Below, piece after piece: positions 25,073-62,929 of a stretch of DNA of 64,000 nucleotides. A program made the position numbers and the translations under genes. Source of the stretch: an uncultured Bacilli bacterium (GTDB taxonomy: Bacteria > Bacillota_I > Bacilli_A > RF39 > UBA660); the NCBI GenBank assembly GCA_944329425.1, contig CALVIG010000003.1:51460-115459 (forward strand), read 5' to 3'. Position 1 is the stretch's first letter, and every line of letters begins with the position of its first letter. The notes beneath the pieces were generated by a model that worked only from the letters and a program-made list of their open reading frames with translations, ran no database searches and was not told where the DNA came from.

Positions 25073-25216
25073 TATTAAAATATGAAAAAATAAGCAAAGA
25101 TAAATATGATTTTGTTTTAGAAATTTAATAAACTTTTAAAGTTAATGAAAAATATATAAAATTAATAATAAAATAAAGAAAAATCATGATATAATAATTA
25201 GCAAAAAGGAGGACTT

Positions 25217-26176: not shown

Positions 26177-26386
26177 TTTTAATTATAAAATGTATGGTAT
26201 AATAAAAATAAAGAAAGGAACTTTTTTTATGGACATAGTTCATTAATAAAATAGTTTTTTATTACTAGTTGCTATTATAATAGCTATAAAGTTATATAAT
26301 ACTAAAATCTTGAAAGATTAAATTGATTAATCTTTTTTTTAAAATAATTACTTAAAAAAATGGTATTATAATTATAGGAGGATTTT

Positions 26387-35224: not shown

Positions 35225-35284
35225 GATAAAAAGATTTGGTATTTTGAACTGAACCCCAAAAGTTGGACAGTTTATAATTAGTTT

Positions 35285-36097: not shown

Positions 36098-36132
36098 TAA
36101 TGGATATGTTAGCCGAAGTTCACTTACAACAT

Positions 36133-36642: not shown

Positions 36643-36849
36643 ATAAAAACCTCGTTTCTATGTCCAAGAAACGGGGTTCATATCATTTTCCAAATCTTTT
36701 TATTTTTGTTTTACAAACATTTTATTTTGACATATTTTATACAATGGCTTGTCTTATTATTATTTTAGTCATTAATAAATGACAATATTTAACATTATTA
36801 CGTACTATTTTGCTGTTTGTGTGTTATAATTTATGATAGGTGATGCTAG

Positions 36850-37779
36850 GTGAAGACAAAGGAGTTTAAAACCCTAGATGAGCAAATAGAAATTTTAAAA
36901 AACCGTGGGTTGGTTATTAATGACATTGATGGTGCGAAAAGATTGCTATTAAGAGAAAATTATTTCTTTATTAACGGATATCGTCATATATTTCTTAAGA
37001 ATCGTAATGGAAATGACTTCATAAAGGGTACTACCTTTGAAGAGTTGTATGCGGTATTTCAGTTTGATAGGAATTTTAGAAACATCTTGTTTAAGAATTT
37101 GCTTATCGTTGAAAACAACTTAAAATCAATACTATCATATTGTTTATCAAAAAAATATGGTATTAAAGAAAAAGATTATTTAAAACCTTCTAATTTTTCT
37201 CAAGACATAAAAAAAATTAGACAAGTAAACGATGTTTTAAGCAAGATTAAAAGGCAAATAAAATTAAATGGTAGGCAGCATAGTGCTACGCTTCACTATT
37301 TAAGTAATTATGGTTATGTTCCTTTATGGATCTTAGTAAAGTTACTATCTTTTGGTATGATTAATGAATTATATTCTATACTAAAACCGGAGGATAAATT
37401 ACTAATTGCAGAATATTATAATTTAGATGTTGAAACGTTAGGAATATACATAGGACTTTTATCTAATTATCGTAATTTGTGCGCCCATGAAGACATTGTA
37501 TATGATCATAAAACGCAAAAAGAAATTCCTGATACTAGATACCATAGAATACTTGATATACCTACCATGAATGATGAATATGAGTATGGTAAAAATGATA
37601 TTTATGCCGTTGTAATAATGTTAAAACAAGTTTTAGACGAAAGGGATTTTAGCTCTTTTATAGGTGAAGTAAGTTACGAACTAAGTTTGTTAGATGGAAG
37701 GGTAGAAGTTATTCCTCAAAGAAAGATTTTAGATAAGATGGGATTTCCCGAAAATTGGGAGGATATCACTAATATTTAA
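36850..37779 (+). CDS. Abi_2 family abortive-infection protein (AbiD/AbiF-like)
   Basis: N-terminal motif FKTLDEQIEILKNRGLVI...ENYFFINGYRHIF is typical of Pfam Abi_2. GTG start. Confidence 0.65.
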   Translation: MKTKEFKTLDEQIEILKNRGLVINDIDGAKRLLLRENYFFINGYRHIFLKNRNGNDFIKGTTFEELYAVFQFDRNFRNILFKNLLIVENNLKSILSYCLSKKYGIKEKDYLKPSNFSQDIKKIRQVNDVLSKIKRQIKLNGRQHSATLHYLSNYGYVPLWILVKLLSFGMINELYSILKPEDKLLIAEYYNLDVETLGIYIGLLSNYRNLCAHEDIVYDHKTQKEIPDTRYHRILDIPTMNDEYEYGKNDIYAVVIMLKQVLDERDFSSFIGEVSYELSLLDGRVEVIPQRKILDKMGFPENWEDITNI

Positions 37780-39729: not shown

Positions 39730-39827
39730 TTTCTTTTTTTAAATTATTAAAAATATAGAATGTTTCTTATTATCAACCTATTTTTAAATCCATATAATAT
39801 AAAAGAGAAATGATGGAGGTTATTTTT

Positions 39828-40724
39828 ATGTATTGTGATAAGTTAGATTCTTGTAATAAAAGTTGTTGTGGACCTTTTAAACGTGTGTATCCTATTCCTG
39901 GGCCTACTGGCCCGACAGGACCCACGGGACCAATGGGAGCAACAGGCCCAACAGGTCCAACAGGTCCAACCGGCCCTACTGGACCAGTAGGTGCTACCGG
40001 ACCAACTGGAAGTGTTGAGGTAAACCCATATGATTTATATGTTCAATCTACGGCAGTACCCGGAGGAGATGGTAGTCAATCTGCACCTTTTCAAACAATA
40101 CAAGAGGCACTAGCAGTATCAAAACCTAATGGCACGATAAACGTTTTAAGTGGCACTTATCCTATCACGCAGCAGATTACTTTAAATATTCCAGGATTAA
40201 CGTTAAAAGGTAAGGCTGGAACAATGATTTTGCTTAAGGCACCGATTGTACCATTTCTATGTACTGGGGGTAATATCACGATTGATGGATTTACCATGAC
40301 AAGTGATGCACCATATCCGGTTGAATTTATACAAATTGCAGGAGATGGGAACCAAATTTTAAATTGTCAGATTTATGGCCCAGACCAGCAGGGAGATTCT
40401 TCAACATGGGTAGTAAACAGGGGATTTGTAACCCAAAATAATGCTACTAATTTATTAGTACGAAATAATGTTTTTCATACGCTAAGGCAACCCGCGTATT
40501 TAAATCCTAACTCTACTGGAACAATTATGGATAACGTTGTTTATAATACTCGTGGGTACGTGGTTGATCAGGCGATATTTTTGTTTTCGGGTAATTCTTG
40601 GGGAATTCCAGAAAATACGGTAGATATTGCGTTACTTGCGGGGACTAAAACTGGTGCGCCTTATGATCCACTATCAGCTTTAGAAGCTAATAATAGTAAT
40701 GTTACAATCAGTGATCAGCGGTAA
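39828..40724 (+). CDS. Collagen-like triple-helix repeat protein with C-terminal right-handed beta-helix domain
   Basis: Cys-rich N-terminus ([16 protein letters not shown]) and about 20 GPT/GAT triplets ([37 protein letters not shown]). It is followed by repetitive N/G/T-rich beta-helix-like rungs. Local GC is elevated. The ATG at 39828 is the preferred start. Confidence 0.7.
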
Positions 40725-40867
40725 AATAAGAGTATTTAAGTGTAATAATATAAATAAAAATAATAATTTTAAATTTAAAAGTAGCAGATGTAACTAAGAC
40801 TTCAATAATTTCATAGTAAGTAGAAGTTCTTTATAACTAAAAAAATATGAATTAATATTTTCTGTAT

Positions 40868-41917
40868 GTGAATATGAAGGAATTTATTAAAACTAATAGT
40901 ATAACAAATCTTTTAGGTTTCTTTTTTTATGAAGGCTATAATTATTGTATAATTAAATCGATAACATCAAAAAAGATAGGATTTTATTTGATTATGAAAC
41001 TAAAAGATTTAAAATGTGAAAATTATGATATTAATCTAGATGAATATATTGAATTTAGAGAAAATGTTAAAAAAAATATGATACACCCAGAATGGCTTGG
41101 TGATTTTTCAAAAGAAGATTTATTAAACCTATTAAATAATAACTCTAAAATATGGATTTACTATTTAGATAAAGAACCTGTTTGTTCTATGATGTTAATT
41201 CCAGCAGATAAAAATGCTTTATTAAAATTTAAATTAGGTTTAGATTACAAAGTCGTAGCTGACTATGGTCCTATGTTTGTTAATCCAAAATACGTGGGTA
41301 ATGGTTTACAGTATCAGATGCTGCTTGAATTGGACAATTATTGTATTAATATGGGATATGAATATGCAGTAACAACTATTCATCCAGATAATATTTATTC
41401 AATCAATAATATAATAAAAGATGATTTTAAGCTAATTAACTATAAGGGTTTCAAAAGAGGCGTAAGAAATATTTATTTGAATTGTTTGGGTAAAAATCAT
41501 ATTCAAAAAATATTAACATTTATTATTTGTGATAATAAATTATTATTATTAAAAGGAAGTAACAAAGATCCTCAATTTCATAAATCATTTTGGTATGTTG
41601 TAACAGGAGCCGTAGAAAAAGAAGATAAAAGTTTAATGGATGCTGTTATACGTGAAATAAAAGAAGAAACGAATTTGAATGCATTAGAGATAAAAAGAAT
41701 TCCATTTTTATTTAAATATGAGTCATTGGGCAAAAAATGCTTAGAACATTGCTTTATAACATATTCTAATAATGATAATATAATTTTAAATGAAGAAAGT
41801 ATTGATTATAAATGGTGTGATCTAGAAGAATTTATAGATTTAATTAATTGGTATGATTCAAAGGCTAAATTAAAAGAAATATTAACTAAATATTTTAATA
41901 ATAAACTTAAAAAATAA
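40868..41917 (+). CDS. GNAT acetyltransferase-like N-terminal domain fused to a NUDIX hydrolase domain
   Basis: Nudix box GAVEKEDKSLMDAVIREIKEETNL in the C-terminal half. The N-terminal half shows a GNAT-like fold signature (YVGNGLQYQML). A terminator hairpin follows at 41921-41945. Confidence 0.55.
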   Translation: MNMKEFIKTNSITNLLGFFFYEGYNYCIIKSITSKKIGFYLIMKLKDLKCENYDINLDEYIEFRENVKKNMIHPEWLGDFSKEDLLNLLNNNSKIWIYYLDKEPVCSMMLIPADKNALLKFKLGLDYKVVADYGPMFVNPKYVGNGLQYQMLLELDNYCINMGYEYAVTTIHPDNIYSINNIIKDDFKLINYKGFKRGVRNIYLNCLGKNHIQKILTFIICDNKLLLLKGSNKDPQFHKSFWYVVTGAVEKEDKSLMDAVIREIKEETNLNALEIKRIPFLFKYESLGKKCLEHCFITYSNNDNIILNEESIDYKWCDLEEFIDLINWYDSKAKLKEILTKYFNNKLKK

Positions 41918-41998
41918 GTTAAGAAACCTTTTGGGTTTCTTTTTTTGTTATCACCCAAATAGGTATTAATCATAAAATACTTTGAAGGAAGTGATAAT

Positions 41999-42055
41999 AT
42001 GGTTATAGTAGATGCTGGACATCAAAGGTGCTTTTTAACAAGGTATATAAAATAA
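41999..42055 (+). pseudogene. 5' fragment of a cwlC-type N-acetylmuramoyl-L-alanine amidase (Amidase_3) gene, interrupted after MVIVDAGH
   Basis: RBS GAAGGAAG followed by ATG. The encoded MVIVDAGH is the start of the IDAGHGGxDPGA catalytic motif. The frame runs into element DNA and stops after 18 codons. The 3' remainder is at 58005-58270. Confidence 0.6.
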
Positions 42056-42191: not shown

Positions 42192-42428
42192 GACTCTTTA
42201 TAATTGATGTCTTACTTTTTAAATTTTAGAAATATTTATTAGTTTATCTACTAGTTTTTATAAACAGCATAAGATATTTTAAAATATATATTTTTTAAAG
42301 ATTGTTTTGTGATATTTTTATTATTTTTCTAATATAAAAATAACATTTACTTTTATATTAGAAAGATATATAATAACACCCAAAAAGGAGCAATGCGTTT
42401 AATTATAATTATATTGGTATAAAGTCTT

Positions 42429-42660
42429 AGATATTGAGTAGTACATCTAAACACTTTTACTTTTGCAGTAAATGTTTGTGGCATTGTAGTGGGTGTGCTA
42501 CTATGATTATAGAGTTTTATTTTTTTGATTTATTTTTTTATATAAATCTCGGATGCGTTTTTGTTAATAAAATCCCATCAGGGATTTTTTTTGTGCAATT
42601 TTATTTAGCACGAGCACCGCCTTTCTGTAAAAAAAAATTATTTTTACGGAAAGGAGTTTA
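42429..42660 (+). promoter_or_regulatory. Conserved leader upstream of sigma-like regulator copy A (paralogous to 54777-55011)
   Basis: About 85 nt are roughly 80% identical to copy B (AGATATTGAGTAGTACATCTAAACACTTTTACT ... GGGTGTGCTACTATG). This is followed by a terminator-like hairpin plus T-run (42570-42593), the shared CACCGCCTTTCT box and a second hairpin abutting the RBS. Confidence 0.4.
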
Positions 42661-42661
42661 A

Positions 42662-43147
42662 ATGAATATACCTAGGAGACGAAAAAGTAAGGATAATCCT
42701 TATACCTTAGGCGTTAATAATGAAGGTAAGTACTTAGTTTCATTTAAAAATGCTAATAATTATAAAGTGTGTATTGAAGTTAGTTATTTAATTTATAAAA
42801 CATTAAACGAATTTGAATTAAAAGATTTATCTCAGTTAAATGAATTTGATAGACATATAGAACATCTAGATTTAATGGAAAATGATGAAATTCTATATAA
42901 AAGAATTATAAAAAAAGAGTTATCTATTGAAGAAATAGTTAATATTAAAATTTCTAAAGAAAATTTAATTTATGCTATAAATAAACTTTCTATAAATCAA
43001 AAAACAAGAATAATGAAATACTATTTTGATGGTAAAACAGAAAGTGATATTGCTTTGGAAGAAAATGTGACACAGCAATCTGTTCATATAGGTTTAAAAC
43101 GAGCAATAAAAAAATTAAGAGAAATTTTAAAAAGTTTAGAAAAATAG
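42662..43147 (+). CDS. Sigma-70 region-4-like HTH regulator (small alternative-sigma/late-activator-like protein), copy A
   Basis: 161 aa. C-terminal MKYYFDGKTESDIALEENVTQQSVHIGLKRAIKKLREILK fits the sigma-70 region 4 HTH pattern. About 50% identical to the ORF at 55012-55491. Confidence 0.55.
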   Translation: MNIPRRRKSKDNPYTLGVNNEGKYLVSFKNANNYKVCIEVSYLIYKTLNEFELKDLSQLNEFDRHIEHLDLMENDEILYKRIIKKELSIEEIVNIKISKENLIYAINKLSINQKTRIMKYYFDGKTESDIALEENVTQQSVHIGLKRAIKKLREILKSLEK

Positions 43148-43180
43148 TCTGTTATTTTTCATTTTAGTGAGGAAATAGGT

Positions 43181-43245
43181 GAAGGGATATATATCCCTTT
43201 TGCCTATCTTTATTAATTAGGTATGATCTTTGACAACTTAATATT
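43181..43245 (+). promoter_or_regulatory. Conserved terminator hairpin plus TTGACA-containing 21-nt box downstream of sigma-like copy A
   Basis: Hairpin GAAGGGATATATATCCCTTT, then GATCTTTGACAACTTAATATT. The same arrangement, nearly identical, occurs at 55531-55611 after copy B. It lies about 80 nt upstream of the tail-collar gene. Confidence 0.4.
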
Positions 43246-43323
43246 ATTAATTTAAAAATGTCTAGTGAAATTCCAGTAGAAAAAATTTTATGATGAAGCT
43301 GTTAAAGAAAGGAGAATGATATT

Positions 43324-44466: not shown

Positions 44467-44855
44467 TGATAACCCTTCCCATTAAGGATCATTTAATTAT
44501 GCGAGCACTTAATAATTATTCTAATACTGTTTATGAACTTAATATTTTAAAAAGAAGATTAAATTTACTTGTAAATTATGAATCCGAAATTGCTTTGGAA
44601 AAAAATAGGTTAATAAATTTAATAGATAACGAACAACAGGTGATAAAGCAAATGGAAAATGATTTACAAAATTTATCTGGTATTGAAAATAAACTGTATT
44701 ATGAAATTGTTATTAATGGTACTAACGTAACAAAGGCAATAGATAAAGTAGCAACAAATGAATTTATTGATACTTCAACTTTATGGAAAAATTATTATCC
44801 TAAAGTAAAAAAAGAAATAGATAAATTATATCTACTATTATCTAAAGAAAATTAA
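44448..44855 (+). CDS. Hypothetical protein (possible fibre chaperone/accessory), translationally coupled
   Basis: Overlaps the 3' end of the previous gene. 135 aa. No recognisable family. Confidence 0.35.
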   Translation: MEKGILMITLPIKDHLIMRALNNYSNTVYELNILKRRLNLLVNYESEIALEKNRLINLIDNEQQVIKQMENDLQNLSGIENKLYYEIVINGTNVTKAIDKVATNEFIDTSTLWKNYYPKVKKEIDKLYLLLSKEN

Positions 44856-44875: not shown

Positions 44876-47800
44876 ATGAAAGAAATAGAGTTAATTGGAA
44901 AACGAAAAGCAAGAGAAAAACATTTCTTAAAAGAAAATGGAATAATAACAGCTAATGTCTATGATGAAGATATTCATTTTTTAAAAGATGGAAAATATGA
45001 AGAGATTGATAATACACTTATTGAGGAAAATGGCTATTTAGTAAATAAAAATAATGCGTATAAAGTTTCTTTTGCAAAGAAAAGTAAAGATGAACTAATG
45101 GAAATGAGTATAGGTAATAATTATATTAAAACAATGTTGGTTTATCAAAAAGAAGTGGATTTAAAAGAAAATATTACTCAGTCCAAACTTCACAAAAACG
45201 TATGTTATCCTAATATAATAGAAAATGTTGATTTAGAATATAATATTATGCCTGGAAAGGTAAAAGAAGCAATTATATTAAAAAATAAAAATGTTGATTT
45301 AGAAAAATTAGTTTTCATAATTGAAACAAACACAAAATTAGAATTAAAGGAAAATAAAAAAATTATTTCAACGGTAGACAATAATAATTGTTTCGAATTT
45401 GACGCACTTTATATGATAGATGCTAACTTTAAAACAAATAATAATATTAATTATAAATTAACTAAAAGAGATGATGATATATATCAACTTGAATTAATTG
45501 TTGACAAAGAATGGTTAAATAATGAAGAAACAAAATATCCAGTAATAATTGATCCAACAATAACAAATTCCGGTCAGAACAATAGTGTCTATGATACTTA
45601 TATTTATCCTGGTGATACTGGAGTTGATAGAAATAGTCAAGATATTTTAAAAGCAGGGGTTGAAAGAATTGATGGCGTTGATAGGGAAAATAGAACGTTA
45701 ATAAAATTTGATTTGCCTGTAATAGGTACCGGTAGTCAAGTAATAGGTGCCAATTTACAGTTATATGGTTATCCAAAAATACCTTCAGATAGTGAAACAG
45801 ATTTGTTGTTGGCTCATAGAATCACCACAAATTGGGATGAAAGTACTGCTACATGGGATAATATGAATGACAAATTTGATCCGTTGGTTGAAGGTTTAAT
45901 ATTTGTTGGAAGAGGATACTATGATTTTGAAAACGAAACTATTCATCCATTTAATTGTGGTGGTGATATTACTAGATTAGTGAGAAAATGGTACACAGGA
46001 ACGCCTAATTATGGTATTATGTTGAAACAAAATCTATTGAAGTATAATGCAAATATATTACCAGCATTTTATTCAAACAATAATAATTCTACTGGTATAA
46101 ATCCTAAGCCTGTATTATCTATATCATATAGAAATCAAAATGGAATAGAAAATTATATGAATTATCAGACAAAAGGTTTTTATGATGGCGAAGCATATGT
46201 CAATAACTATAATGGAAATTTGACCACAATATTTGATATTGGTTCAACAATAAGTGGAAAAATGCCAATTGGTTTAAATCTTATATATAATACAAATGAT
46301 GTTGTGTTAGAAAAAAATTATGGTTATGGATTAGGGTATAAATTAAATTTACACCAAACTATAAAAGAACAACTTATTGATTCTAAAACATATTTAGAGT
46401 ATTGTGATGAAGATGGTACTTTACATTATTTTTTAAATGAAAAAGCTATGTTTGATGAAAATGGTTATAATATCATTAATACACAAAACATTTATTATGA
46501 TGAAGATGGGTTGGATATGACTATAACAAAAAATAGTAATAGTTATGTGCTTAAAGATAAAAATGGAAATACTATGACATTTATTAAAAATGGTGATAAA
46601 GCATATTTAACTAAGATAGAAGATGTTAATGGTAATAAAAATACTATTGAATATAGTCCTGAGAATGCAATAGTAAAAATAATAGATGCTAATGATAATG
46701 AAATAAATTTAGAATATGGTGCAACTACAATAACTATAATAAGTCCAGAACAAACAGTTACTTTAAGTTATTTAAATAACCAAGTAGTCAGTATAAATAG
46801 TTTAACAGGAATAACTCAATTCGAATATAATGCAAATAATATTATATCTAAAATTATTGATATTGATGGTATGAAAACTACTTATGATTACTATGATCAA
46901 AAACCATACAAAGTAAAAAAAGTATCTGAATATGGTGCTGAAAATACTTTGGGAGAATATTTTGAGATGTTGTATGATTTTGATTCTACAACTATAGTAG
47001 ATTCAAAAGAAAACGCAAAAAATATTATATTTAATTCTCAAGGTAGTGTAGTATCAATTAGTGGTTTGAAGGATAAGGATGATATAAAAAATTCGTATGG
47101 GCTTAGCCAAATAAATGGCACATCTGGAATTACCATTAATAATGGAAACAATAATAAATTATTAAGAACAGAGATACCACTTAAATATGTTAAAAATTTA
47201 TTATCTAATACAAGTTTTGAAAAAAATGTAATTAATTTTACTAGTACAGAAGATGTTAATATGATTATAACTAATGAAACCTCGGAAACAGGTGCTAATA
47301 GTTTAAAAGCTACTAGTACAATTAATAATCAAGCATTAACACAAAGTATAGATGTAGAAAAAGGTGATTATTATACATTTAGTAGTTATATTAAAAATAC
47401 TGGTGATGTTAAATTAATTCTTAGTTACTTTGACAAGAATGGGATTATTATTCAATCTCAAAGTGAATTAATAAAGCCGAGTGATGTTTTTGAAAGATAT
47501 GATGTAACAATAAAGTATCCTGAAGATGCAACAAGTAATTTAACTTTAAAAATAATTTTAGAAGATGCTGGAACAGTATATGTTGATGATGTACAGTTGG
47601 AAACCGGTGAAGTTGCAAATAATTATAATTTATTAGAAAATTCAGATTTTTCTAATGGTTTCTCTGATTGGGAGGTTTCAGCTAGTGATAATTTAACAGG
47701 TGATTTATTATCTATAAATGATGTATTTGAAATTGTTTCTTTGCCAGACAATTTAAACGCACTTAAAATAAAAATGAATCCTGCTTATAATTATATTATG

Positions 47801-50800
47801 GAAAAAACATATAATATAAGTGGAAAAGGCGGAGATGTATTTAATCTTTCATTTTGGTATAAAAATGAAGGTGTAGATTCAGATTTATCAGAGTATTATG
47901 GAAGCAGACCATATATTATTTTTCATTATACAAATCAAGAAGATGGACATTGCATTATTCCTACACCGTTACTTAATATAAATGATCAATCATGGCAATA
48001 TGTTTCGAATGATTTTACTGCTGAAAAAGATTATAGTTCTATTACGATTAGTATTCAACATCAATATACTGCAAATGATTTTTATATTACAAATATGAGT
48101 TTATTTAAAGATATAAGAAATGTTTATTATGAGTATGATGAATTTGGAAATGTAATATTAGAAAAAAATTTAGATGATAATAGTAATAAATATAATTATG
48201 ATAAAGATAATAAATTGATTCAGATGACTAATCCAAAAGGCAAAAATTTTACTATTGAATATGATAATATTTTTAAAAATAGGACTATCAATGGTATGAC
48301 TGATATGGGGGTATCTAATCAATTAAAATATGACAATAATAATAATCCAATTATATCTAGGGTTCAAAAAAATAATATTATAGGTGATATAACAGATGGT
48401 TTATATAAAATAAGATTAAAGGGAAGCGATATATATTTAAGAAATATATCAAATGATATTAAATGTAAATTAGAAAACTGTAACCATGATATATGGAAAT
48501 TAGAAAAGATAGATGAATATGTTAAAATCCATCACTCTATTCTTACTGATAAATATTTTACTGTTCAGAATAATAATATTATTTTATCAAATGAAAATGG
48601 AGATAATTCACTATTTAAGTTGAAGAAAAATAAAAACGGAAGTTATTCTATAAAATTAAAACTAGAGGATAAATACTTAAAATATAATAATTCAGGAATA
48701 GAAATATCAACTTTGATAGATGAAGATTACAGTTTTGAATTTTATTTTGAAACTGTAGATTGTGATTTATTTATTGAAAATAAAGCGGAGTATACAGAAA
48801 ATGGTGCGTTTATAAGTCGAATAATTGATTCATTAAATCATTCTTATAATTATGAAATTGATCAGGAAAAAGGTTTGACTAAATCAGAAACAAACGAAAA
48901 AGGTATTAAAACTAATTATAATTATAATTCTAAAAAGAAACTTATTTCATCTATATGCAACGATAAAAGTGTATTTTATGAATATAATGATAAAAATTTG
49001 TTAAGTAAAGTTAAGCATGGTAAGAAAGAATATAATTTTATTTATGATGAATTTTCTAATGTTAAGACAATAAAAATGGGTAATAATATTAGGCTTATTA
49101 CATATAATTATGATACAAATGGAGATTTGATTTTATTAGATTATGGGAATGAAGGCTCTCTAAATTATGAGTATGACGAATTTTCTAGATTAAGTAAAAA
49201 AACTAAAGAAAATGATACCTATGAATATAAGTATAATGGAAGTGGAGATTTGGTAAAAATTTTATCAAATAATTACATAACTAAATATACTTATGATTTA
49301 GCTAAAAGATTGAGTAAATATAATTTTGATGATTTTATAATTAAATATAAATATGACTCAAATGAAAATATAACGAATATTAAGTATAGTTTGGGTAGCA
49401 TAAATAATGAAATAATAAATACTTTTAATGATGATGATTTGATAATTAATACGTCATTTTCAAATAAAAAAATAAATTATACCTATGATTTACTAGGTAG
49501 ATTAAAAAGTGAAAAAATAAACAATATATATGAAACAAGTTATGAATATATAGAGAATGGAAAAAATACTTCTACTCTATTGAAAAAGCTTAAAACAGGT
49601 AATAATATATATTCATACAAATATGATAAATTAAATAATTTAACGCATGTTTATTATAATGACGACTTATTAACTAAATATTATTATGATGACTATAATC
49701 AGCTTATAAAGGAAATCGATTTTGAAGATAAAAAAATTATAAAATATAAATATGATAATGTAGGTAATATGTTATACAAAAAAGTATATGCTTTGGATAC
49801 CTATGACTTTATTACCCAAGATATATATTATTACAATAATGATGATTGGCAAGATCAATTAACTTCGTTTAATAACACCGCTATTACTTATGATGAAATA
49901 GGGAATCCATTAACTATAGGTAATAATATTAATCTAAACTGGATTAATGGTAGAGAACTAGAAACTTATAATGATGGTACTAACCTAATTTCGTATAAAT
50001 ATAATTCTGAAGGTATAAGAATAAGTAAAAAGGTGAATAACACGGAAACGAAATATTATTTAGAGGATAATGATATAATATTTGAAAAGAGAGGAAATAA
50101 TGTGCTATACTATTTACGTAATGATATAGATGATTTGTTTGGATTTATGTATAATAACGATTTATATTATTATGTAAAAAATAATAAGAATGATATTGTA
50201 GGTATATTAGATAACAGTTATAATATAGTAGCTAAGTATAAATATGATTCTTGGGGAAAAGTAATTTCTATAACTGATAGTCAAGATAACGATATATCAA
50301 ATAATGTTAATAATATAGGAAATATAAATCCGTTTAGATATAGATCTTATTATTATGATTCAGAAACTAAATTATATTATTTAAATAGTAGATATTATAA
50401 TCCGGAATGGAAAAGATTTATTAATCCTGATTCTTATGCTGGACAAATTGGTGGAAATATATTACTTCACAATATATATATATATTCTTTAAATAATCCT
50501 ATTTTATATAGCGATGAAAGTGGTAATATAGTAGGATTAACATCAGTAGCTGCGGGTGTGTTATACGCTTTTGGAATTGCTGTATTTAAAGCTTCTGTGT
50601 ATGTAGCTGTTAGTGGTTTAGTTGTTGGGGGCTCTATTTATGTGGGAAAAGCCATATCCAATAATAAAAGTAAATCAAAATCAAAGACGAAAGCACAAAG
50701 TAAATCTAAAATAAAAACTGCTGTGGCTGCAAAAGCAAAAACTAGTACAAAAAAATATTCGAACAACAATAAGCCATGTACAGAAGCCTATTTTACAAAA

Positions 50801-51079
50801 GATATGAGAGATGTTGTACGTGGTGAAAGATTAACAATTGAAGAAACAATTGCAAAAGTTAATGCTAAGGGAAATGTTATGTGTGATAATTATTGGCCCG
50901 CTAAAGAAGTTGCTACTGCCATTTCTCCAAATCCAATATGTGAAATAAATAGCATTCAGCATAAAGGATATAAATATTACTATCACTTTCATCCAAATAG
51001 AGATACTTATAAGGATGTACATATATTCTTTGAAGGATTACCATTAGAATTTTTTGAAGGGAAGGGAAATTGTAGATGA
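44876..51079 (+). CDS. Rhs/YD-repeat polymorphic toxin (2067 aa): DNRLRE-like domain, CBM-like and ricin-B-like lectin modules, YD repeats, RHS core, variable C-terminal toxin domain
   Basis: RBS GAAAGGAGA. Dozens of YD-type repeats (e.g. YKYDSNENITNIKY, YTYDLLGRL). RHS core end motif FRYRSYYYDSETKLYYLNSRYYNPEWKRFINPD...NIYIYSLNNPILYSDESGN. N-terminal region with DNRLRE-like segment (DRENRTLIKFDL). No signal peptide. Confidence 0.85.
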   Translation: MKEIELIGKRKAREKHFLKENGIITANVYDEDIHFLKDGKYEEIDNTLIEENGYLVNKNNAYKVSFAKKSKDELMEMSIGNNYIKTMLVYQKEVDLKENITQSKLHKNVCYPNIIENVDLEYNIMPGKVKEAIILKNKNVDLEKLVFIIETNTKLELKENKKIISTVDNNNCFEFDALYMIDANFKTNNNINYKLTKRDDDIYQLELIVDKEWLNNEETKYPVIIDPTITNSGQNNSVYDTYIYPGDTGVDRNSQDILKAGVERIDGVDRENRTLIKFDLPVIGTGSQVIGANLQLYGYPKIPSDSETDLLLAHRITTNWDESTATWDNMNDKFDPLVEGLIFVGRGYYDFENETIHPFNCGGDITRLVRKWYTGTPNYGIMLKQNLLKYNANILPAFYSNNNNSTGINPKPVLSISYRNQNGIENYMNYQTKGFYDGEAYVNNYNGNLTTIFDIGSTISGKMPIGLNLIYNTNDVVLEKNYGYGLGYKLNLHQTIKEQLIDSKTYLEYCDEDGTLHYFLNEKAMFDENGYNIINTQNIYYDEDGLDMTITKNSNSYVLKDKNGNTMTFIKNGDKAYLTKIEDVNGNKNTIEYSPENAIVKIIDANDNEINLEYGATTITIISPEQTVTLSYLNNQVVSINSLTGITQFEYNANNIISKIIDIDGMKTTYDYYDQKPYKVKKVSEYGAENTLGEYFEMLYDFDSTTIVDSKENAKNIIFNSQGSVVSISGLKDKDDIKNSYGLSQINGTSGITINNGNNNKLLRTEIPLKYVKNLLSNTSFEKNVINFTSTEDVNMIITNETSETGANSLKATSTINNQALTQSIDVEKGDYYTFSSYIKNTGDVKLILSYFDKNGIIIQSQSELIKPSDVFERYDVTIKYPEDATSNLTLKIILEDAGTVYVDDVQLETGEVANNYNLLENSDFSNGFSDWEVSASDNLTGDLLSINDVFEIVSLPDNLNALKIKMNPAYNYIMEKTYNISGKGGDVFNLSFWYKNEGVDSDLSEYYGSRPYIIFHYTNQEDGHCIIPTPLLNINDQSWQYVSNDFTAEKDYSSITISIQHQYTANDFYITNMSLFKDIRNVYYEYDEFGNVILEKNLDDNSNKYNYDKDNKLIQMTNPKGKNFTIEYDNIFKNRTINGMTDMGVSNQLKYDNNNNPIISRVQKNNIIGDITDGLYKIRLKGSDIYLRNISNDIKCKLENCNHDIWKLEKIDEYVKIHHSILTDKYFTVQNNNIILSNENGDNSLFKLKKNKNGSYSIKLKLEDKYLKYNNSGIEISTLIDEDYSFEFYFETVDCDLFIENKAEYTENGAFISRIIDSLNHSYNYEIDQEKGLTKSETNEKGIKTNYNYNSKKKLISSICNDKSVFYEYNDKNLLSKVKHGKKEYNFIYDEFSNVKTIKMGNNIRLITYNYDTNGDLILLDYGNEGSLNYEYDEFSRLSKKTKENDTYEYKYNGSGDLVKILSNNYITKYTYDLAKRLSKYNFDDFIIKYKYDSNENITNIKYSLGSINNEIINTFNDDDLIINTSFSNKKINYTYDLLGRLKSEKINNIYETSYEYIENGKNTSTLLKKLKTGNNIYSYKYDKLNNLTHVYYNDDLLTKYYYDDYNQLIKEIDFEDKKIIKYKYDNVGNMLYKKVYALDTYDFITQDIYYYNNDDWQDQLTSFNNTAITYDEIGNPLTIGNNINLNWINGRELETYNDGTNLISYKYNSEGIRISKKVNNTETKYYLEDNDIIFEKRGNNVLYYLRNDIDDLFGFMYNNDLYYYVKNNKNDIVGILDNSYNIVAKYKYDSWGKVISITDSQDNDISNNVNNIGNINPFRYRSYYYDSETKLYYLNSRYYNPEWKRFINPDSYAGQIGGNILLHNIYIYSLNNPILYSDESGNIVGLTSVAAGVLYAFGIAVFKASVYVAVSGLVVGGSIYVGKAISNNKSKSKSKTKAQSKSKIKTAVAAKAKTSTKKYSNNNKPCTEAYFTKDMRDVVRGERLTIEETIAKVNAKGNVMCDNYWPAKEVATAISPNPICEINSIQHKGYKYYYHFHPNRDTYKDVHIFFEGLPLEFFEGKGNCR

Positions 51080-52208: not shown

Positions 52209-52432
52209 AAGAAAAATTGATTTTATCTATTATTAATTTACTTAAAGTAAAATCAATAATAACGCTACTTACATTTGTAGCGTTCTTTTATTTATCTATT
52301 TCAGAAAAAATAGGTAGCGATAATTTTATGCTGATTATAGGAATGATTGCGACTTATTTCTTTAATAAAGATAATTCTGAAAAATTAAAAAATAAATCTA
52401 TGGAAGTGGTAAAAGATGAGCAAGATAACTAA
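52205..52432 (+). CDS. Small two-transmembrane holin-like protein
   Basis: 75 aa. Two hydrophobic helices and a charged C-terminus (KDEQDN). It overlaps both neighbours (ATGA-type coupling). Confidence 0.45.
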   Translation: MKEKLILSIINLLKVKSIITLLTFVAFFYLSISEKIGSDNFMLIIGMIATYFFNKDNSEKLKNKSMEVVKDEQDN

Positions 52433-53153
52433 CTTAATATTTAAAAATGCTAATCATTATGTAACATCTGGCTTTGGTAATAGAAAAGTAATGAATACCA
52501 AAGGAGGCTATACAAGTTCTTTTCATAATGGAACAGATTATGGGACAAATAATGTTAAATTACCACAATATGCTATTGAAAATGGAACTGTATTAAGTTG
52601 TGGTACGGATTCTTTAGGAGGAAAATTTGTTTGGGTTAAATATCCTAGAATAAATGTTAAAATGCTTCATTATCATTTATCTAGTGTTAATTGTAAAACT
52701 AATCAAATAGTATCTAAGGGAACACTTTTAGGATATACTGGTATGAGTGGTAAGGCAACAGGTATTCATTTGCATTTGTCTATTGTTGATCTATCTAATG
52801 GAGAGTTTTTGAATCCTGAGACGTATTCTTATACTGAACAAAGTGAAACATCTGTGCCTGTAATTAATAATTCATTTTTTGGTAATAAATCATATTTTAA
52901 GCGTGGTGATTCATGTGACAATATAGGTAAAGTATGTTATTTTTTTGCAGACTATTTTTATGGATATTTTTGTAAAACTAAAGAGGAGGCTCATAAGTTA
53001 TTAGATGGTAATCTATTTGGACCATATCTTGAGAAATGGGTAAAAGAGTTTCAAGAAAGAGCTAAAGCAGAGGGAAGGTATTATGATAACATTGATGGCT
53101 ACATTGGACCTAAAACTTTAAAAACTTTAGAAAGCTATGGGTTTATTTATTGA
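52416..53153 (+). CDS. M23-family peptidoglycan endopeptidase with C-terminal PG_binding_1 domain (endolysin-like)
   Basis: HNGTDYG ... GMSGKATGIHLHLSI (HxxxD/HxH zinc motifs of LytM/M23). C-terminal ...YYDNIDGYIGPKTLKTLESYGF is the peptidoglycan-binding repeat. No signal peptide. Confidence 0.75.
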   Translation: MSKITNLIFKNANHYVTSGFGNRKVMNTKGGYTSSFHNGTDYGTNNVKLPQYAIENGTVLSCGTDSLGGKFVWVKYPRINVKMLHYHLSSVNCKTNQIVSKGTLLGYTGMSGKATGIHLHLSIVDLSNGEFLNPETYSYTEQSETSVPVINNSFFGNKSYFKRGDSCDNIGKVCYFFADYFYGYFCKTKEEAHKLLDGNLFGPYLEKWVKEFQERAKAEGRYYDNIDGYIGPKTLKTLESYGFIY

Positions 53154-53284: not shown

Positions 53285-54058
53285 ATGACAAAGAGATTAA
53301 AACTATTTATAATAATTACTGTATTATTAATTATAATAATATTTATTTTCAGATTATTTCCTTTTGGATATAATCAATATAAAATTAGCTTGGATTTAAG
53401 TAAAATTACTTTGCCTAAATTTTCATATGATATTAAACAGGAACAAAAAGGTATAATAACTTTTAAATCACATAGAAGTAAATTTATAATTCAAGATGAA
53501 ATAAATGATATGTTTGAATCTTATGATAAATATATTTGTAATAACAAAGTGTATTATTATGATAAAAATCATAATATAACATTTATGGATTATGAAATCT
53601 CAAATAGATTTTTTACTAATAATATTAAATTAATATATCATAGTGGTAAATTTAGTGATAATGAATGTGCAAAAGTATTTGATTATAAACAAATGGATTA
53701 CAGAATTATCCCGGTTAATAGCACAGGTCATTGTTATATTAAAGAAGATAAGTTTGAATATAGAGATGAAAATAATGAATTACATAATGTGTATTATGAA
53801 TGTTTTGGTAATTTAGCATTTAAAAATGGAATGAATAAAATGGAATATATTGATAGAGTTTTATTTTTTAGATGGATTTCTATGAAGGACATAATTAATT
53901 ATTTAAATTATAAAACAAAAGATAAAACTTTTATGAAAAAAATAATAGATAAAAAACATACGTTATATTATAATAATGATTTTTATTTGTTGAAGTGTAA
54001 TAATAAAAATATATATATAGGTGAAAAGTATGATGAATTTAAAAGTTATTGTAATTAA
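53285..54058 (+). CDS. Hypothetical protein with N-terminal transmembrane anchor
   Basis: ORF with RBS AGGAGA. Extremely AT-rich. No family recognised. Confidence 0.35.
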   Translation: MTKRLKLFIIITVLLIIIIFIFRLFPFGYNQYKISLDLSKITLPKFSYDIKQEQKGIITFKSHRSKFIIQDEINDMFESYDKYICNNKVYYYDKNHNITFMDYEISNRFFTNNIKLIYHSGKFSDNECAKVFDYKQMDYRIIPVNSTGHCYIKEDKFEYRDENNELHNVYYECFGNLAFKNGMNKMEYIDRVLFFRWISMKDIINYLNYKTKDKTFMKKIIDKKHTLYYNNDFYLLKCNNKNIYIGEKYDEFKSYCN

Positions 54059-54613: not shown

Positions 54614-54776
54614 AAGTAAAATTATATTTCATTTTTTAAAAACATTAAAATAGTAAAGTTTTAAATCATGTTTTTATTAGTTTTATATTATAAAAATCTC
54701 ATTTACTTTTCTGATGTAAAAGTATATAATAGCACTTAAAAAAAAGCAGTGCTTATTATAAAGTATAAGCGATTTT

Positions 54777-55011
54777 AGATATTTGAGTAGTACATCTATA
54801 AACTTTTACTAGTGCAGTAGTTTAGTAGCATTGCTATTAGGGTGTGCTACTATGTATGAAAAGATATTTAATAGTCAATATTTTATTTTTAATGCCGTAT
54901 GGGGCTTGTTCGTTCAAGTCCCGTGCGGCATTTTTTTTATACCTGTTTTTATTATGTTTAAAATTCGTTCACCGCCTTTTCTATTGAATAACTCAATAGA
55001 AAGGAAGGTAA
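54777..55011 (+). promoter_or_regulatory. Conserved leader upstream of sigma-like regulator copy B (paralogous to 42429-42660)
   Basis: Same conserved 5' block, internal hairpin plus T-run (54894-54938), CACCGCCTTTCT box and RBS-proximal hairpin CTTTCTATTGAATAACTCAATAGAAAG. Confidence 0.4.
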
Positions 55012-55491
55012 ATGAATAATCCAAAAAGACGCAAAAGTAAAGATAATCCATATACTTTAATTTATAATTCACAAGATGATAAATATATTATTTCTTTTAA
55101 TGATTCTAGTAACCATAAAATTATTTTTGAAATAGATCGTTCTTTATATATGTTATTTAATGAATTTGAATTAGAAGACTTATCAGAGTTAAATGAATTT
55201 GATAGACATATAGAGCATCTTAATATAATGGAGAGTGATGAGATTCTATATAAAAGAACCCTGAAAAAGAGTTTATTAGTAGATGACATTGTTGATAAAA
55301 AATTAGAAATGGAAACATTGAGAGAAGCTATAAATGAACTTCCAATGACGCAGAAAAGGAGATTAAAAAAGTACTATTTTGAAAATAAAACGCTGGAAGA
55401 TATAGCAAAAGATGAACATTGCTCAAAAGTGGCTGTTAAATATAGCATTGATTGTGCAATTAGTAATTTAAGAAAAAAATTAAAAAGTTAA
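55012..55491 (+). CDS. Sigma-70 region-4-like HTH regulator, copy B
   Basis: 159 aa. Paralogue of 42662-43147 (shared KSKDNPYTL, LNEFDRHIEHL, KYYF...K..S blocks). Confidence 0.55.
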   Translation: MNNPKRRKSKDNPYTLIYNSQDDKYIISFNDSSNHKIIFEIDRSLYMLFNEFELEDLSELNEFDRHIEHLNIMESDEILYKRTLKKSLLVDDIVDKKLEMETLREAINELPMTQKRRLKKYYFENKTLEDIAKDEHCSKVAVKYSIDCAISNLRKKLKS

Positions 55492-55530
55492 ATTTTTAGG
55501 CTTAACTTTTAGGCTAGAAGTGAGGAAATA

Positions 55531-55611
55531 GATGGAAGGGTAAAATATCCTTTCCATCTGTTTTTGATTTTAATAACAAAACACAGAAGTTGATCTTTGA
55601 CAACTTAATAT
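55531..55611 (+). promoter_or_regulatory. Conserved terminator hairpin plus TTGACA box downstream of sigma-like copy B
   Basis: GATGGAAGGGTAAAATATCCTTTCCATC hairpin, then GATCTTTGACAACTTAATATT (identical 21-mer to copy A). Confidence 0.4.
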
Positions 55612-55880
55612 TTATTCATCAGATACGTTCTTATTGTTCTGGAGCACGTTAACAAGTACGCTTGTCGGTAAATACTTGGTTATAAAACTAGATGGCAACT
55701 AGTATTGCGAAGATAAATAATAAGGTTAAAGATACTTCTGTTCAGCCATAGACTCAATCATTGGGAGCAGTCCGGAGTGATCCTCGGGAGAGTGAAAATC
55801 TCATGGAATTAGTTAGCCACTAATCGTCTGGTGAATGTTAAAAGTACTTGTTTATATTAAAATGGAAGGGAATTTATTAA

Positions 55881-58004: not shown

Positions 58005-58270
58005 CTGGACATGGAGGATCTGATCCAGGCGCATCAAATGGTGATATTATTGAAAAAGATTATACTTTAAAAATATCTAATTACATGTATGATAGGTTTA
58101 AAGATTTGGGTATACCGGTGGTTATAACTAGAACAACGGATAAAACTCTTAATCCAACAGACAGGGTAAATGTTATTAAACCCAACATAACTAGTAAAGA
58201 TGATATAGTTATTTCTAATCACTTAAATGCCGGAGGTGGCGAAGGTCAAAGTGTAACAATAAATGTATAA
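58005..58270 (+). pseudogene. 3' fragment of the cwlC-type Amidase_3 gene (start-less), resuming at ...PGHGGSDPGASNGD
   Basis: The frame is open from the element junction with no start codon. It contains GHGGSDPGA, VITRTTD, and HLNAGGG (the H.NAGGG zinc-ligand region), then stops prematurely shortly after. Confidence 0.6.
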
Positions 58271-58309
58271 CAATTAAAGCCTAAATATAGAAAGAAATGA
58301 GGAAATGTT

Positions 58310-58660
58310 ATGAATATTAGTTACACTAGAAAAGGTGATTATTTATTACCTAATTTGATATTAGAAAATAAAGAACAATATAATATAAGAAAATATGGAT
58401 TATTAAGATTAGATTATATTAAAAATAATAAGAAAAGTTTATACATTAAATTACTTATGAATGATGAATTAAATAAATATTTACATGATATAGATGAATT
58501 AGTAGAAGATAAAGTAAATGAATTAATAAAGATACTTGCTGAAAAAGAAAATATAAATGAAGAAATGAAATGTAATCAACAATTACTATGGATAAAAAAT
58601 ATGAATAATATAAAAAATAGAGCTGAAGAAATTATATTAAAGGAGTATATCTATGTGTGA
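58310..58660 (+). CDS. TnpV-like transposon-encoded protein (Tn4451 TnpV family)
   Basis: N-terminus MNISYTRKGDYLLPNLIL and C-terminal LWIKNMNNIKNRAEEII resemble TnpV proteins, which pair with large serine recombinases. Confidence 0.45.
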   Translation: MNISYTRKGDYLLPNLILENKEQYNIRKYGLLRLDYIKNNKKSLYIKLLMNDELNKYLHDIDELVEDKVNELIKILAEKENINEEMKCNQQLLWIKNMNNIKNRAEEIILKEYIYV

Positions 58661-58952
58661 TATAACAGAAAAAGAATGGAATCAAAAATATTTACCTTTT
58701 TATCATAATTTCAGTAAGTATATGATTAATTACATTATTCCTGATGTAGTAGCTTTTTATATAGCTAATAGTTATAGTAGAAAATGTTTATGTGATTCAT
58801 CGCTTTATAATCATATTAATTCTGCAAAAGATGTATTTAATGTAAGCTGCGATACAAAAAAATTAATACCTAAAATCGAAGAAATATTAAGAATAAAATA
58901 TAATCTAAAAATAGTAAATAATAATCCATTAAGATTAAAAAGATGTTATTAA
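58653..58952 (+). CDS. Hypothetical protein
   Basis: ORF overlapping the tnpV-like stop. No family recognised. Confidence 0.3.
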   Translation: MCDITEKEWNQKYLPFYHNFSKYMINYIIPDVVAFYIANSYSRKCLCDSSLYNHINSAKDVFNVSCDTKKLIPKIEEILRIKYNLKIVNNNPLRLKRCY

Positions 58953-59368
58953 AGAAATTAACGCTATCTGAAATATGATAGTGTTTTTTGTTTATGTGAG
59001 TATATTTATTGTCTAGCCAGCACTGAATTTCTACTCCCGTACGAAATTCTTTTGTGGGAAATGTCCCAAGCCCTATTTTTAAAATTAAAAATTTGTAAGT
59101 ATTTCAATGCCAAAATTAAAATTTTGTCAAATTATATGGTATAATAATATCATATTGGTTTTGATACTACGAAAAACAATAGGATCAACTAGGATATTAA
59201 TTAATTTGTAATTTTTATAGTTTGTTAAGCTTTATTTATTAATAGTGTGGTATTAAAAAAAATTAAAATTATACTTATTGCTAAAAAAGATTATTTAAAT
59301 TCTTTTTTGTTGAAATAGCTTATTTTAATAAATAATAAATTGAAAAATAGTTATTAGGAAGTGATATA

Positions 59369-62836: not shown

Positions 62837-62929
62837 TTTAATATTCAAATAGAAAAATATATAAAAGCGCTAGTACAGGCTTAATCTATTTAGGTTTTGT
62901 ATTGCGCTTTTTTAGTAGTAGGAGGAATT

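Follow-up and report, generated by a model that had tools for sequence, protein, structure and literature searches.

A signal-less Rhs polymorphic toxin encoded with a phage-type fibre tip and lysis genes on an integrative element of an uncultured Bacilli bacterium: a candidate lysis-released bacteriocin

How does a very large toxin that carries no export signal leave a Gram-positive cell, and how does it find its target? The question is raised by an Rhs gene on the plus strand (44876..51079) of a 64,000-nucleotide (nt) stretch of DNA from an uncultured Bacilli bacterium (contig CALVIG010000003.1 of assembly GCA_944329425.1), the whole of which is called the window below. Export of signal-less Rhs proteins in Gram-positive bacteria is openly unresolved in the literature: some bacterial teneurin-like proteins have no signal peptide, and their secretion and delivery were left unexplained (PMC13018210, published in 2026), as was the passage of WapA through the cell wall (PMC12704120). 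The reading that we favour, and to which we give slightly better than an even chance, is that the locus encodes a phage-derived, lysis-released and receptor-guided Rhs bacteriocin on a self-contained mobile module. Together with at least 587 related stretches, the locus offers a testable answer in the form of co-regulated release by lysis, a borrowed phage tip and lectins on the Rhs cocoon.

Architecture of the Rhs protein and its N- and C-termini

The existence of the open reading frame (ORF) was confirmed. It encodes 2,067 amino acids (aa) with the defining features of an Rhs polymorphic toxin, namely YD repeats (PF05593, RHS_repeat, E 3e-18; TIGR01643, YD_repeat, E 2e-14) and a canonical Rhs-associated core, as an earlier reading of the sequence (the original prediction) had claimed. 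In an alignment of 40 homologues, the NPILYSDESG motif is invariant up to G1883, and conservation stops exactly at this residue. The number of repeats, given earlier as about 35, was not reproduced; a self-trained hidden Markov model recognized 13 clear and 22 permissive canonical YD motifs.

The carbohydrate-binding modules read from the sequence before were recovered, with one shift in position: the DNRLRE domain, which is related to CBM96 (a family described in PMC9971899), lies at aa 240–416 and not at aa 160–300. PF24517 is carried by homologues of the Rhs protein. At the place where a jelly-roll module had been predicted (47200–47700 nt), CBM_4_9 (PF02018) was matched with an E value of 1.4e-9 and 38.8 bits, against a Pfam cut-off of 25.9, and the same region gave weak NCBIfam matches to GTA_spike_fiber and NTTRR-F1. 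For the predicted beta-trefoil (ricin-B-like) module, Pfam RicinB_lectin_2 was matched below threshold (E 6e-4), but a profile built from 18 homologues matched the solved lectins Mitsuba-1 (E 4e-8), SeviL (1.5e-5) and botulinum HA-17 (5e-4), and an AlphaFold2 model of the segment (pLDDT 86) superposed on HA17, HA33, CBM42 and SeviL with TM values of 0.71–0.80. Since YD repeats flank both the CBM_4_9 and the trefoil modules on either side, the two are insertions in the YD shell and should be placed on its outer face. A profile of the N-terminal 235 aa found no sequence relative among the entries of the Protein Data Bank (PDB). Pfam and NCBIfam detected no LysM, SLH, CWB or LPXTG wall anchor in the Rhs protein, and no TcA-like translocator or TcB (SpvB/beta-propeller) domains were found in it or in its neighbours.

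Since the Rhs start codon is the first ATG, GTG or TTG downstream of an in-frame stop, an extended alternative start with a signal peptide, which had been named as a finding that would overturn the prediction, is excluded; a strong ribosome-binding site (RBS; AAAGGAG) lies 8 nt 5' of the annotated ATG. The maximum 15-residue Kyte-Doolittle mean over residues 1–70 is 0.43, in contrast to N-terminal hydropathies of 2.2–2.8 in the signal-bearing relatives, which are more distant and belong to Acutalibacteraceae, Ruminococcaceae and one metagenome-assembled genome (MAG) labelled 'Bacilli'. As the signal peptides are obvious in these distant relatives, one in the Rhs protein would have been seen. 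The 120 best homologues share the N-terminal sequence MKEIELIxKRKxREKHFL...IHF...YEEIDNTL, and none of the 120 is hydrophobic there. No LXG or WXG/WXG100 domain was found in the whole protein, or in aa 1–240 at E values up to 1. The predicted absence of both a Sec signal and an N-terminus of the LXG/type VII secretion system (T7SS) type was therefore upheld. The signal-less N-terminus is a conserved trait of the family rather than a start-codon artefact, and, judged by its sequence, a protein with neither Sec signal nor wall anchor is not of the WapA type.

It might be argued that a signal was overlooked and that this is nevertheless a conventional Rhs toxin dependent on Sec (as WapA is) or on T7SS, since the characterised Gram-positive Rhs/WapA proteins use Sec, including the DNRLRE-bearing one of Streptococcus suis (PMC12704120). 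The position of the start codon and its RBS, the hydrophilic and conserved N-terminus of 120 homologues next to the easily seen signal peptides of the sister clade, and the lack of LXG or WXG domains largely refute this explanation, which we consider barely tenable.

Beyond the core, the C-terminal regions differ among homologues, and the alternatives include Ntox44, Tox-REase-7 and AHH. In the window, this region opens with two hydrophobic helices followed by a Lys/Ser-rich linker (aa 1925–1960, with 13 K/R in 36 residues); hydrophobic or cationic amphipathic segments likewise open the post-core region of homologues with other toxins. The next gene, which overlaps the Rhs stop codon, encodes a 242-aa protein with neither a signal peptide nor a transmembrane (TM) segment, and in 10 of 12 cases, orphan cassettes included, its family (imm242) is found after a toxin module of the A2 type. 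It was therefore assigned as the cognate cytoplasmic immunity protein, which implies that the toxin would act on a target in the cytoplasm.

Several relatives have, 3' of the main Rhs gene, orphan C-terminal fragments of Rhs that bring immunity genes of their own (L037 12647–13668; L049 10–13 kb; L084 17.9–20.1 kb; L032 17079–18117; L numbers denote the loci compared). They form the classical cassette arrays of polymorphic toxins; the window itself has none.

The lectin modules also raise the possibility of a toxin directed against animal cells, in which they would bind gut epithelial glycans as botulinum HA proteins or Tc toxins do. The trefoil is closest to HA17/HA33, SeviL and MytiLec-type lectins, all binders of animal glycans, the producers are gut bacteria, and release of the holin type is used by Tc toxins and large clostridial toxins. 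However, the immunity gene is tightly coupled and varies together with the type of toxin, orphan toxin-immunity cassettes exist, the C-terminal regions of relatives include classical antibacterial nucleases, and the fibre tip encoded beside the Rhs gene (see below) is also found in phages of Gram-positive bacteria. An animal target is thus very unlikely.

Fibre-tip and lysis genes beside the Rhs gene

A search of 5.8 billion proteins returned 744 matches to the Rhs protein. Hundreds of homologues are about 2,050 aa long and 45–82% identical, with a coverage of about 91% where the C-terminus differs. The related stretches, at least 587 in a scan of one genome per species, are mostly from uncultured gut MAGs labelled Bacilli, Tenericutes or Mollicutes; carriers include Acholeplasma sp. 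CAG:878 and Clostridium sp. CAG:1000, and more distant members occur in Blautia and other Clostridia. Most carriers belong to uncultured small-genome 'Bacilli/Tenericutes' lineages, whose competition biology is almost wholly uncharted. For comparison of gene order, 88 loci were ORF-called and classified with jackhmmer; 60 of them are non-redundant and full-length, and 36 have at least 5 kb on both sides (fully viewed loci).

The neighbour that the original prediction had called tail-fibre-like is a gp10-like gene, whose product combines an N-domain specific to the family with a neck motif and a trimeric Gp10_C tip that contains an HxH motif. It matches the C-terminal domain of T4 gp10 in the PDB (E 3e-14) and, over 230 residues, is 34–38% identical to a protein of Lactobacillus delbrueckii phages annotated as 'antireceptor' (E 1e-31 to 1e-34). 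Viral contigs contain at least 544 relatives of the tip but none of the N-terminal 140–180 or so residues of the long form; the neck motif and the tip are common to the long (about 380 aa) and short (about 200 aa) gp10-like forms. These matches point to a genuine phage receptor-binding module. The gp10-like gene lies directly upstream of Rhs in 46 of the 60 non-redundant full-length loci, all 46 of which are signal-less, and downstream in 2 more, and is absent from all six signal-peptide-bearing relatives (five of them with informative upstream sequence). Thus the neighbour had been recognized correctly, but it is not mere context: it is the most constant partner of the signal-less Rhs genes.

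Homologues of the small coiled-coil protein encoded between gp10 and Rhs, which had no family match in profile searches, occupy this position in about 14–17 loci. In some species, two or three short fibre-tip genes stand in tandem beside Rhs, resembling host-range cassettes (L032 8818–10001; L040 8740–9994; L063 18901–20671).

Since the Gp10_C tip and the neck are typical virion parts, and the tandem genes recall host-range cassettes, the Rhs protein and the fibre tip could belong as accessories to a phage or tailocin particle whose genes lie elsewhere in the genome, the tip being mounted on a baseplate and the Rhs protein carried as an effector, and both would be released by the lysis that frees the particle. 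This is quite unlikely, because the Rhs family has no relative in the 2.9 million viral contigs of IMG/VR, no tail, sheath, tube or baseplate genes were present in any inspected locus, the short fibre forms have no obvious baseplate-attachment domain, and the unit has lysis genes and a regulator of its own.

On the other side, the Rhs gene is followed beyond the immunity gene by genes for two small membrane proteins (hol99 and hol75) and an M23 peptidase, confirming that it stands between a tail-fibre-like gene and a lysis cassette. Homologues of hol99 occur in gut phages, one of them annotated as a holin, and the isolated Clostridium phage CS266P3 has a trio in matching order (104 aa, 76 aa and lysozyme); hol75, the gene of which overlaps both of its neighbours, gave no tblastn match among GenBank phages. 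The order regulator, gp10, coiled coil, Rhs, immunity, hol99, hol75 and M23 recurs at unrelated places in the chromosome, such as between MutS/NusB or DpaA/AsnB genes, in homologues at 47–60% identity. Some relatives have Phage_holin_4_1, the holin family of TcdE in Pfam, instead of the two small proteins, and CW_7/LysM, Amidase_2 or CHAP instead of M23. Counting the hol99/hol75 pair and Phage_holin_4_1, three unrelated holin families are found across the loci.

Within 6 kb, a holin is present in 17 of the 36 fully viewed loci, and a holin or M23 in 19; two further loci have a holin at about 7 kb (21 of 36 when the limit is extended to 7 kb). The lysis genes may lie downstream or, as in L013, L029, L032 and L050, upstream, and a holin gene directly precedes gp10 in L012, L052 and L061. 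Phage_holin_4_1 was present in all three signal-less relatives of the Lachnospiraceae type with a readable downstream flank (L077, L086 and L087); L086 is from a cultured carrier, Blautia caecimuris DSM 29492.

Table 1. Features of the toxin locus and of the element carrying it, in window coordinates
Feature	Position	Strand	Remarks
attL core CTGGACAT	42014..42021	+	Left junction, inside codons 6-8 of cell-wall amidase gene
Promoter/leader of regulator gene	42312..42661	+	Left copy of 1.25-kb direct repeat; repeat families D2, D7, D3 against 54668-55059
Sigma-70 region-4-type regulator, 161 aa	42662..43147	+	Pfam Sigma70_r4_2, E 5e-7
Conserved 21-nt cis motif ATGTCTAGTGAAATTCCAGTA	43258..43278	+	About 50-65 nt upstream of gp10-like start; candidate promoter/operator
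Phage receptor-binding fibre-tip protein (gp10-like), 380 aa	43324..44466	+	Pfam Gp10_C, E 1e-24
Small coiled-coil protein, 118 aa from ATG (135 aa from GTG at 44448)	44499..44855	+	Candidate fibre or assembly helper
Rhs N-terminal domain, aa 1-235	44876..45580	+	Conserved, hydrophilic, no signal peptide; weak DUF7948 match
DNRLRE domain, aa 240-416, CBM96-related	45593..46123	+	NCBIfam NF033679 (DNRLRE_dom), E 6e-21
CBM_4_9 jelly-roll carbohydrate-binding module, aa ~773-895	47192..47560	+	Between YD-repeat blocks
Beta-trefoil lectin-like module, aa ~1175-1295	48398..48760	+	Within YD shell
Rhs-associated core, aa 1790-1883	50243..50524	+	Ends ...NPILYSDESG; TIGR03696, E 1.6e-15
Two hydrophobic helices, aa 1885-1924	50528..50647	+	From hydropathy; candidate membrane-entry segment of released C-terminal piece
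Toxin module, ~95 aa	50756..51037	+	Invariant C1968, C2003, H2037, H2039, H2049
Cognate immunity protein, 242 aa	51076..51804	+	Start overlaps Rhs stop codon (ATGA)
Holin-like protein 1 (hol99), 99 aa	51909..52208	+	One N-terminal TM segment; phrog_4105, E 1e-16
Holin-like protein 2 (hol75), 75 aa	52205..52432	+	Two hydrophobic segments; phrog_13256, E 4e-11
Endolysin-type hydrolase, M23 peptidase with C-terminal wall-binding-like domain	52416..53153	+	Peptidase_M23, E 9e-14; PHROG endolysin families
Membrane-anchored protein, 257 aa, element cargo	53285..54058	+	N-terminal TM segment; in only 2 loci
Second leader and sigma-like regulator copy (gene 55012-55491)	54668..55553	+	70-89% identity; Pfam, NCBIfam
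pemK RNA motif (cis-regulatory)	55726..55806	+	Rfam RF02913, 57 bits against gathering cut-off 34.8; downstream of second regulator copy
Large serine recombinase, 545 aa	56347..57984	+	Resolvase, Recombinase, Zn_ribbon_recom, DUF4368; right end of element
attR core CTGGACAT	58005..58012	+	Amidase frame resumes here (..GHGGSDPGASNG..)

Control of the toxin-lysis genes and their carriage on a 16-kb element

The genes of the toxin-lysis block overlap or are tightly spaced, and no strong terminator was found between 43200 and 54890. The lysis genes start 104 nt after the immunity gene with neither motif nor strong terminator in between, and are therefore probably read through from the toxin operon. 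The 21-nt cis motif is unique in the window, where 0 matches are expected by chance, and stands before gp10 only, with no copy before the holin genes; it is conserved in L002, L004, L025 and L049. In L022 and L036, GTCTAGTGAAAnTCCAGT occurs twice, before the gp10 operon and before the holin operon, the holin-side copy coming after a terminator-like hairpin. At the sequence level, this duplicated motif is direct evidence that the toxin and lysis genes of these two species are under common control.

The regulator, the leader of which includes a terminator-like hairpin (42569–42588), may be a sigma-like factor or a helix-turn-helix activator. A homologue lies upstream of gp10-Rhs in L004, L005, L009, L021, L022, L025, L026, L036, L055, L059 and L066. 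A direct repeat of 1.25 kb (42312–43200 and 54668–55553, with a spacing of 12,353 nt), which duplicates promoter, leader and sigma-like gene, flanks the toxin-lysis block, with one copy at the head of the toxin operon and the second at that of the element's recombinase end. In six further species, the fibre-tip/Rhs operon is separated from the sigma-like gene by a leader of about 250 nt that contains the pemK motif (L021 2380–2435; the regulator-gp10 intergenic regions of L005, L009, L017, L055 and L059) and is strongly conserved, although the proteins share only about 45% identity. The pemK leader may be a regulatory RNA controlling the toxin operon.

All these genes lie on an insertion of about 16.0 kb. 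In the conspecific strains L172, L173 and L175, picked by an identical RpsI protein, the amidase gene is intact where the window has the insertion (blastn against L175), and one of the empty sites is on a 1.07-Mb contig. The insertion splits an Amidase_3/LysM gene in its DAGHGG motif, and the recombinase gene ends 20 nt before the attR core. The cargo comprises the regulator, fibre tip, Rhs, immunity and lysis genes, the membrane-anchored protein (257 aa, with no family match in profile searches), the second regulator module and pemK, together with the recombinase. The whole unit is thus cargo of a large-serine-recombinase integrative element.

Several further observations concern the integration site. 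The empty site of L175 is at 14639–16024, and the remnants of the interrupted gene are at 41998–42021 and 58005–58246 of the window. Next to the gene lie a Hydrolase_2 gene (SleB-like) and another Amidase_3/LysM gene, and the split at the DAGHGG motif recalls the intervening elements of sporulation genes. A second insertion (58247–64000), which carries TnpV (58310–58660) and a fused EcoRI-type adenine/C5-cytosine DNA methyltransferase (59369–61474), cuts into this amidase gene again 245 nt beyond attR and continues past the end of the window. Since L176 carries another serine-recombinase insertion at the point of this second one, the amidase gene is an integration hot spot. In L174, a conjugative-element-like insertion (14264–20414, with ParA, ParB, SpaA-type pilin, sortase and SSB) is found in the region instead of the Rhs element.

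The element is not a prophage: no capsid, portal, terminase, tube, sheath, baseplate or tape-measure genes are present among the roughly 40 ORFs between 18 and 64 kb, and the Rhs family is absent from the 2.9 million viral contigs. Structural phage genes were likewise not found in the inspected related loci, and megablast of the 11.7-kb cassette gave nothing in GenBank phages or PLSDB plasmids. It could still be the remnant of a decayed prophage into which an unrelated Rhs gene was inserted, the toxin leaving by ordinary autolysis or another exporter. Genes of the phage type encode the fibre tip, the holins, the endolysin and the serine recombinase alike, and about 40% of the related loci have no linked lysis genes. 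In contrast, the pairing of gp10 and Rhs is kept across hundreds of species at 40–60% protein identity with intact ORFs, the holins and hydrolases are swapped for non-orthologous types and change sides but stay linked, the toxin and lysis operons of L022 and L036 are tied by a common cis motif, and many loci stand among housekeeping genes, without a recombinase or any further phage gene. A remnant of this kind is therefore unlikely, although it is the alternative to which we give most weight.

Neither the Rhs protein nor the fibre tip has an export signal, and phage-like parts occur with a lysis cassette capable of suicide and with an Abi_2 gene (36850–37779) nearby. An intracellular role, such as abortive infection in which the fibre-tip-like protein or the regulator senses a phage and the toxin and lysis genes kill the cell, has therefore to be considered. 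However, three carbohydrate-binding modules make little sense inside a cell, and polymorphic C-termini with cognate immunity and orphan cassettes are the signature of competition between strains. As for the Abi_2 gene, it is present in all compared strains, including those lacking the element, and is therefore not part of it. We regard an intracellular role as highly improbable.

The favoured reading, that of a lysis-released and receptor-guided bacteriocin, would involve the following steps: i) the sigma-like regulator would turn on one operon of about 11 kb, from the gp10-like gene through the M23 gene; ii) the Rhs protein would fold in the cytoplasm into a YD-repeat cocoon enclosing its C-terminal piece, with the DNRLRE/CBM96-like, CBM_4_9 and beta-trefoil modules, in or ahead of the shell, displayed outside, and the trimeric, phage antireceptor-like fibre tip would be made together with it; iii) both would be set free as part of the producer cells are lysed by the M23 endolysin and the two holin-like proteins, in a manner that parallels, for Gram-positive cells, type 10 secretion or the release of colicins; iv) the fibre tip, together with the lectin modules, would attach to glycopolymers in the walls of related bacteria; v) the two hydrophobic helices and the cationic linker would carry the C-terminal piece across the target membrane, delivering the Cys/His toxin of about 95 aa into the cytoplasm of the target; vi) sister cells would be protected by the cytoplasmic immunity protein; and vii) the unit would move between strains as cargo of the element. 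The locus suggests that in many uncultured gut bacteria such toxins are set free by the bursting of some of the producer's own cells. Of all this, the sequences show the domain architecture, the missing signal, the synteny counts, the pairing of toxin and immunity, the common cis motif and the mobility of the unit; release by lysis, any cooperation of fibre tip and Rhs, physical or functional, the wall-glycan receptor, translocation across the membrane and the target of the toxin are inferred.

Recurrent linkage with non-orthologous holins and hydrolases, together with the cis motif shared in two species, favours lysis-dependent release. The original prediction had proposed a route other than Sec, possibly dependent on holin and endolysin, and this gains from the recurrent linkage to phage lysis genes. 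A number of findings weigh on the other side. Lysis-dependent release is read from synteny and gene linkage only, and neither hol99 nor hol75 could be assigned to a curated holin family. Neither holin nor M23 was found within 6 kb in 14 of the 29 well-viewed loci with gp10 and Rhs, so that a rule that every signal-less Rhs has linked lysis genes has to be rejected, and a Pfam scan of 140 ORFs near the lysis-less loci gave mostly housekeeping genes and one amidase. Since about 40% of the well-viewed related loci have no lysis genes within this distance, the lysis cassette is not an obligatory partner in cis, and in the lysis-less loci linked lysis genes must therefore be dispensable, act in trans or have been missed. 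As to cooperation between fibre tip and Rhs, the short gp10-like forms (about 180–230 aa) have almost nothing before the neck motif with which the Rhs protein could dock, so a physical complex of the two is unsupported; and since the Rhs N-terminal domain is the same in signal-bearing relatives, it is not a dedicated fibre adaptor. The regulator matches sigma region 4 only, with TIGR02937 covering its C-terminal half only, so that its identity as a TcdR-type sigma factor is not established. Finally, the C-terminal toxin of about 95 aa matches no known family or fold.

Relation to known systems and neighbouring regions

The locus shares with WapA and other Gram-positive Rhs proteins a YD shell, a core bearing a C-terminal cleavage motif, a toxin that varies and an immunity gene placed downstream, and the WapA-CT1 of S. 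suis also carries a DNRLRE domain (PMC12704120). Unlike WapA of Bacillus subtilis and WapA-CT1, which act by contact and are equipped with a Sec signal and domains for wall anchoring, the Rhs protein of the window has no signal, LysM or anchor; it differs further in its CBM_4_9 and trefoil insertions and in having a phage fibre-tip gene and lysis genes as partners.

YenTc of Yersinia entomophaga, which is encoded beside a phage-derived type 10 secretion cassette for lysis (holin, endolysin and spanin; PMC10847048, PMC10847046), is likewise very large and signal-less with an Rhs cocoon, and its release by lysis of a subpopulation of producers has been proposed. However, YenTc is a tripartite ABC toxin of a Gram-negative bacterium directed against insects, with a TcA injector and no immunity gene, whereas the locus in the window encodes a single-chain Rhs protein with an antibacterial immunity pair, a spanin-less lysis set for a monoderm cell and a fibre tip instead of TcA. 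A layout of small sigma-type regulator, giant signal-less toxin, phage holin and endolysin-type gene is also that of PaLoc, the Clostridioides difficile pathogenicity locus (TcdR sigma factor, TcdA/TcdB, TcdE holin and the endolysin remnant TcdL; PMC6200909, PMC3369941). The PaLoc toxins are glucosyltransferases that target host cells and have no immunity gene, in contrast to an Rhs cocoon under a regulator with a match to region 4 only.

Colicins and S-type pyocins are lysis-released, receptor-guided diffusible bacteriocins. They resemble the locus in combining toxin, immunity and lysis functions with a receptor-binding component, in mobile carriage and in strain-variable presence. The locus differs from colicins in its Rhs cocoon with lectin insertions, its separate antireceptor-like protein and its holin and endolysin in place of a lysis lipoprotein. 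Among Gram-positive bacteria, the umbrella toxin particles and ABP toxins of Streptomyces are diffusible polymorphic toxins with lectin modules that recognize surface glycans, and cationic or amphipathic segments of the ABPs have been proposed to help membrane entry (PMC13460014). They differ from the present toxin in being exported by Sec or T7SS, in not being based on Rhs and in having no phage fibre or lysis genes.

The bacterial teneurin-like proteins (PMC13018210) have a YD shell, variable adhesion domains and a polymorphic C-terminal toxin as well, and homologues of the Rhs protein match PF25023 (TEN_YD-shell). The teneurin superfold comprises the elements TTR, FN-plug and NHL propeller. 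The present family has an Rhs core domain and a fibre-tip and lysis context. Judged by its domains and gene content, the locus does not belong with the LXG toxins, the Tc complexes or the tailocins and prophages. The arrangement was not found described in literature searches on DNRLRE, on Rhs with holin/endolysin or tail fibre, on polymorphic toxins with holin or on type 10 secretion systems with Rhs.

More tentatively, and with somewhat less than an even chance of being right, we propose that the signal-less Rhs proteins of uncultured gut Bacillota form an undescribed class of diffusible 'Rhs bacteriocins', in which a lectin-decorated cocoon would be released together with an antireceptor-like trimer by a dedicated Gram-positive holin-endolysin (type 10-like) route and spread on serine-recombinase elements, the Cys/His module of about 95 aa being a new toxin fold. 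If true, this would be the first concrete account of the exit of signal-less Rhs and teneurin-like toxins from monoderm bacteria and of their targeting. This would extend the idea of type 10 or PaLoc-type release to interbacterial Rhs toxins of monoderm gut commensals. The compact 16-kb mobile unit could be reconstituted in a model host, and it provides a toxin module, so far uncharacterised, whose immunity partner is defined.

Other parts of the window also vary among strains. A tmRNA gene (20262–20625) is followed by a low-GC segment of about 5.6 kb (21–25% GC; region 20262–26287). The segment, which L175 lacks, has genes for a nitroreductase, a GNAT acetyltransferase, an ABC transporter and an AAA ATPase, and probably represents an islet beside ssrA that varies between strains. 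An IS3-family insertion downstream of rpsI (35246–36683, with the transposase at 35285–36097 and an upstream ORF at 36133–36642) is absent in L172–L176 and present in L171. Within the regions 39810–40724 and 40760–41940, a collagen-repeat/right-handed beta-helix protein lies just left of the element; its PHROG 'tail fibre' score comes from its collagen repeats only and its length varies from 142 to 319 aa among strains, and the adjacent segment of NUDIX/GNAT genes is absent in L175.

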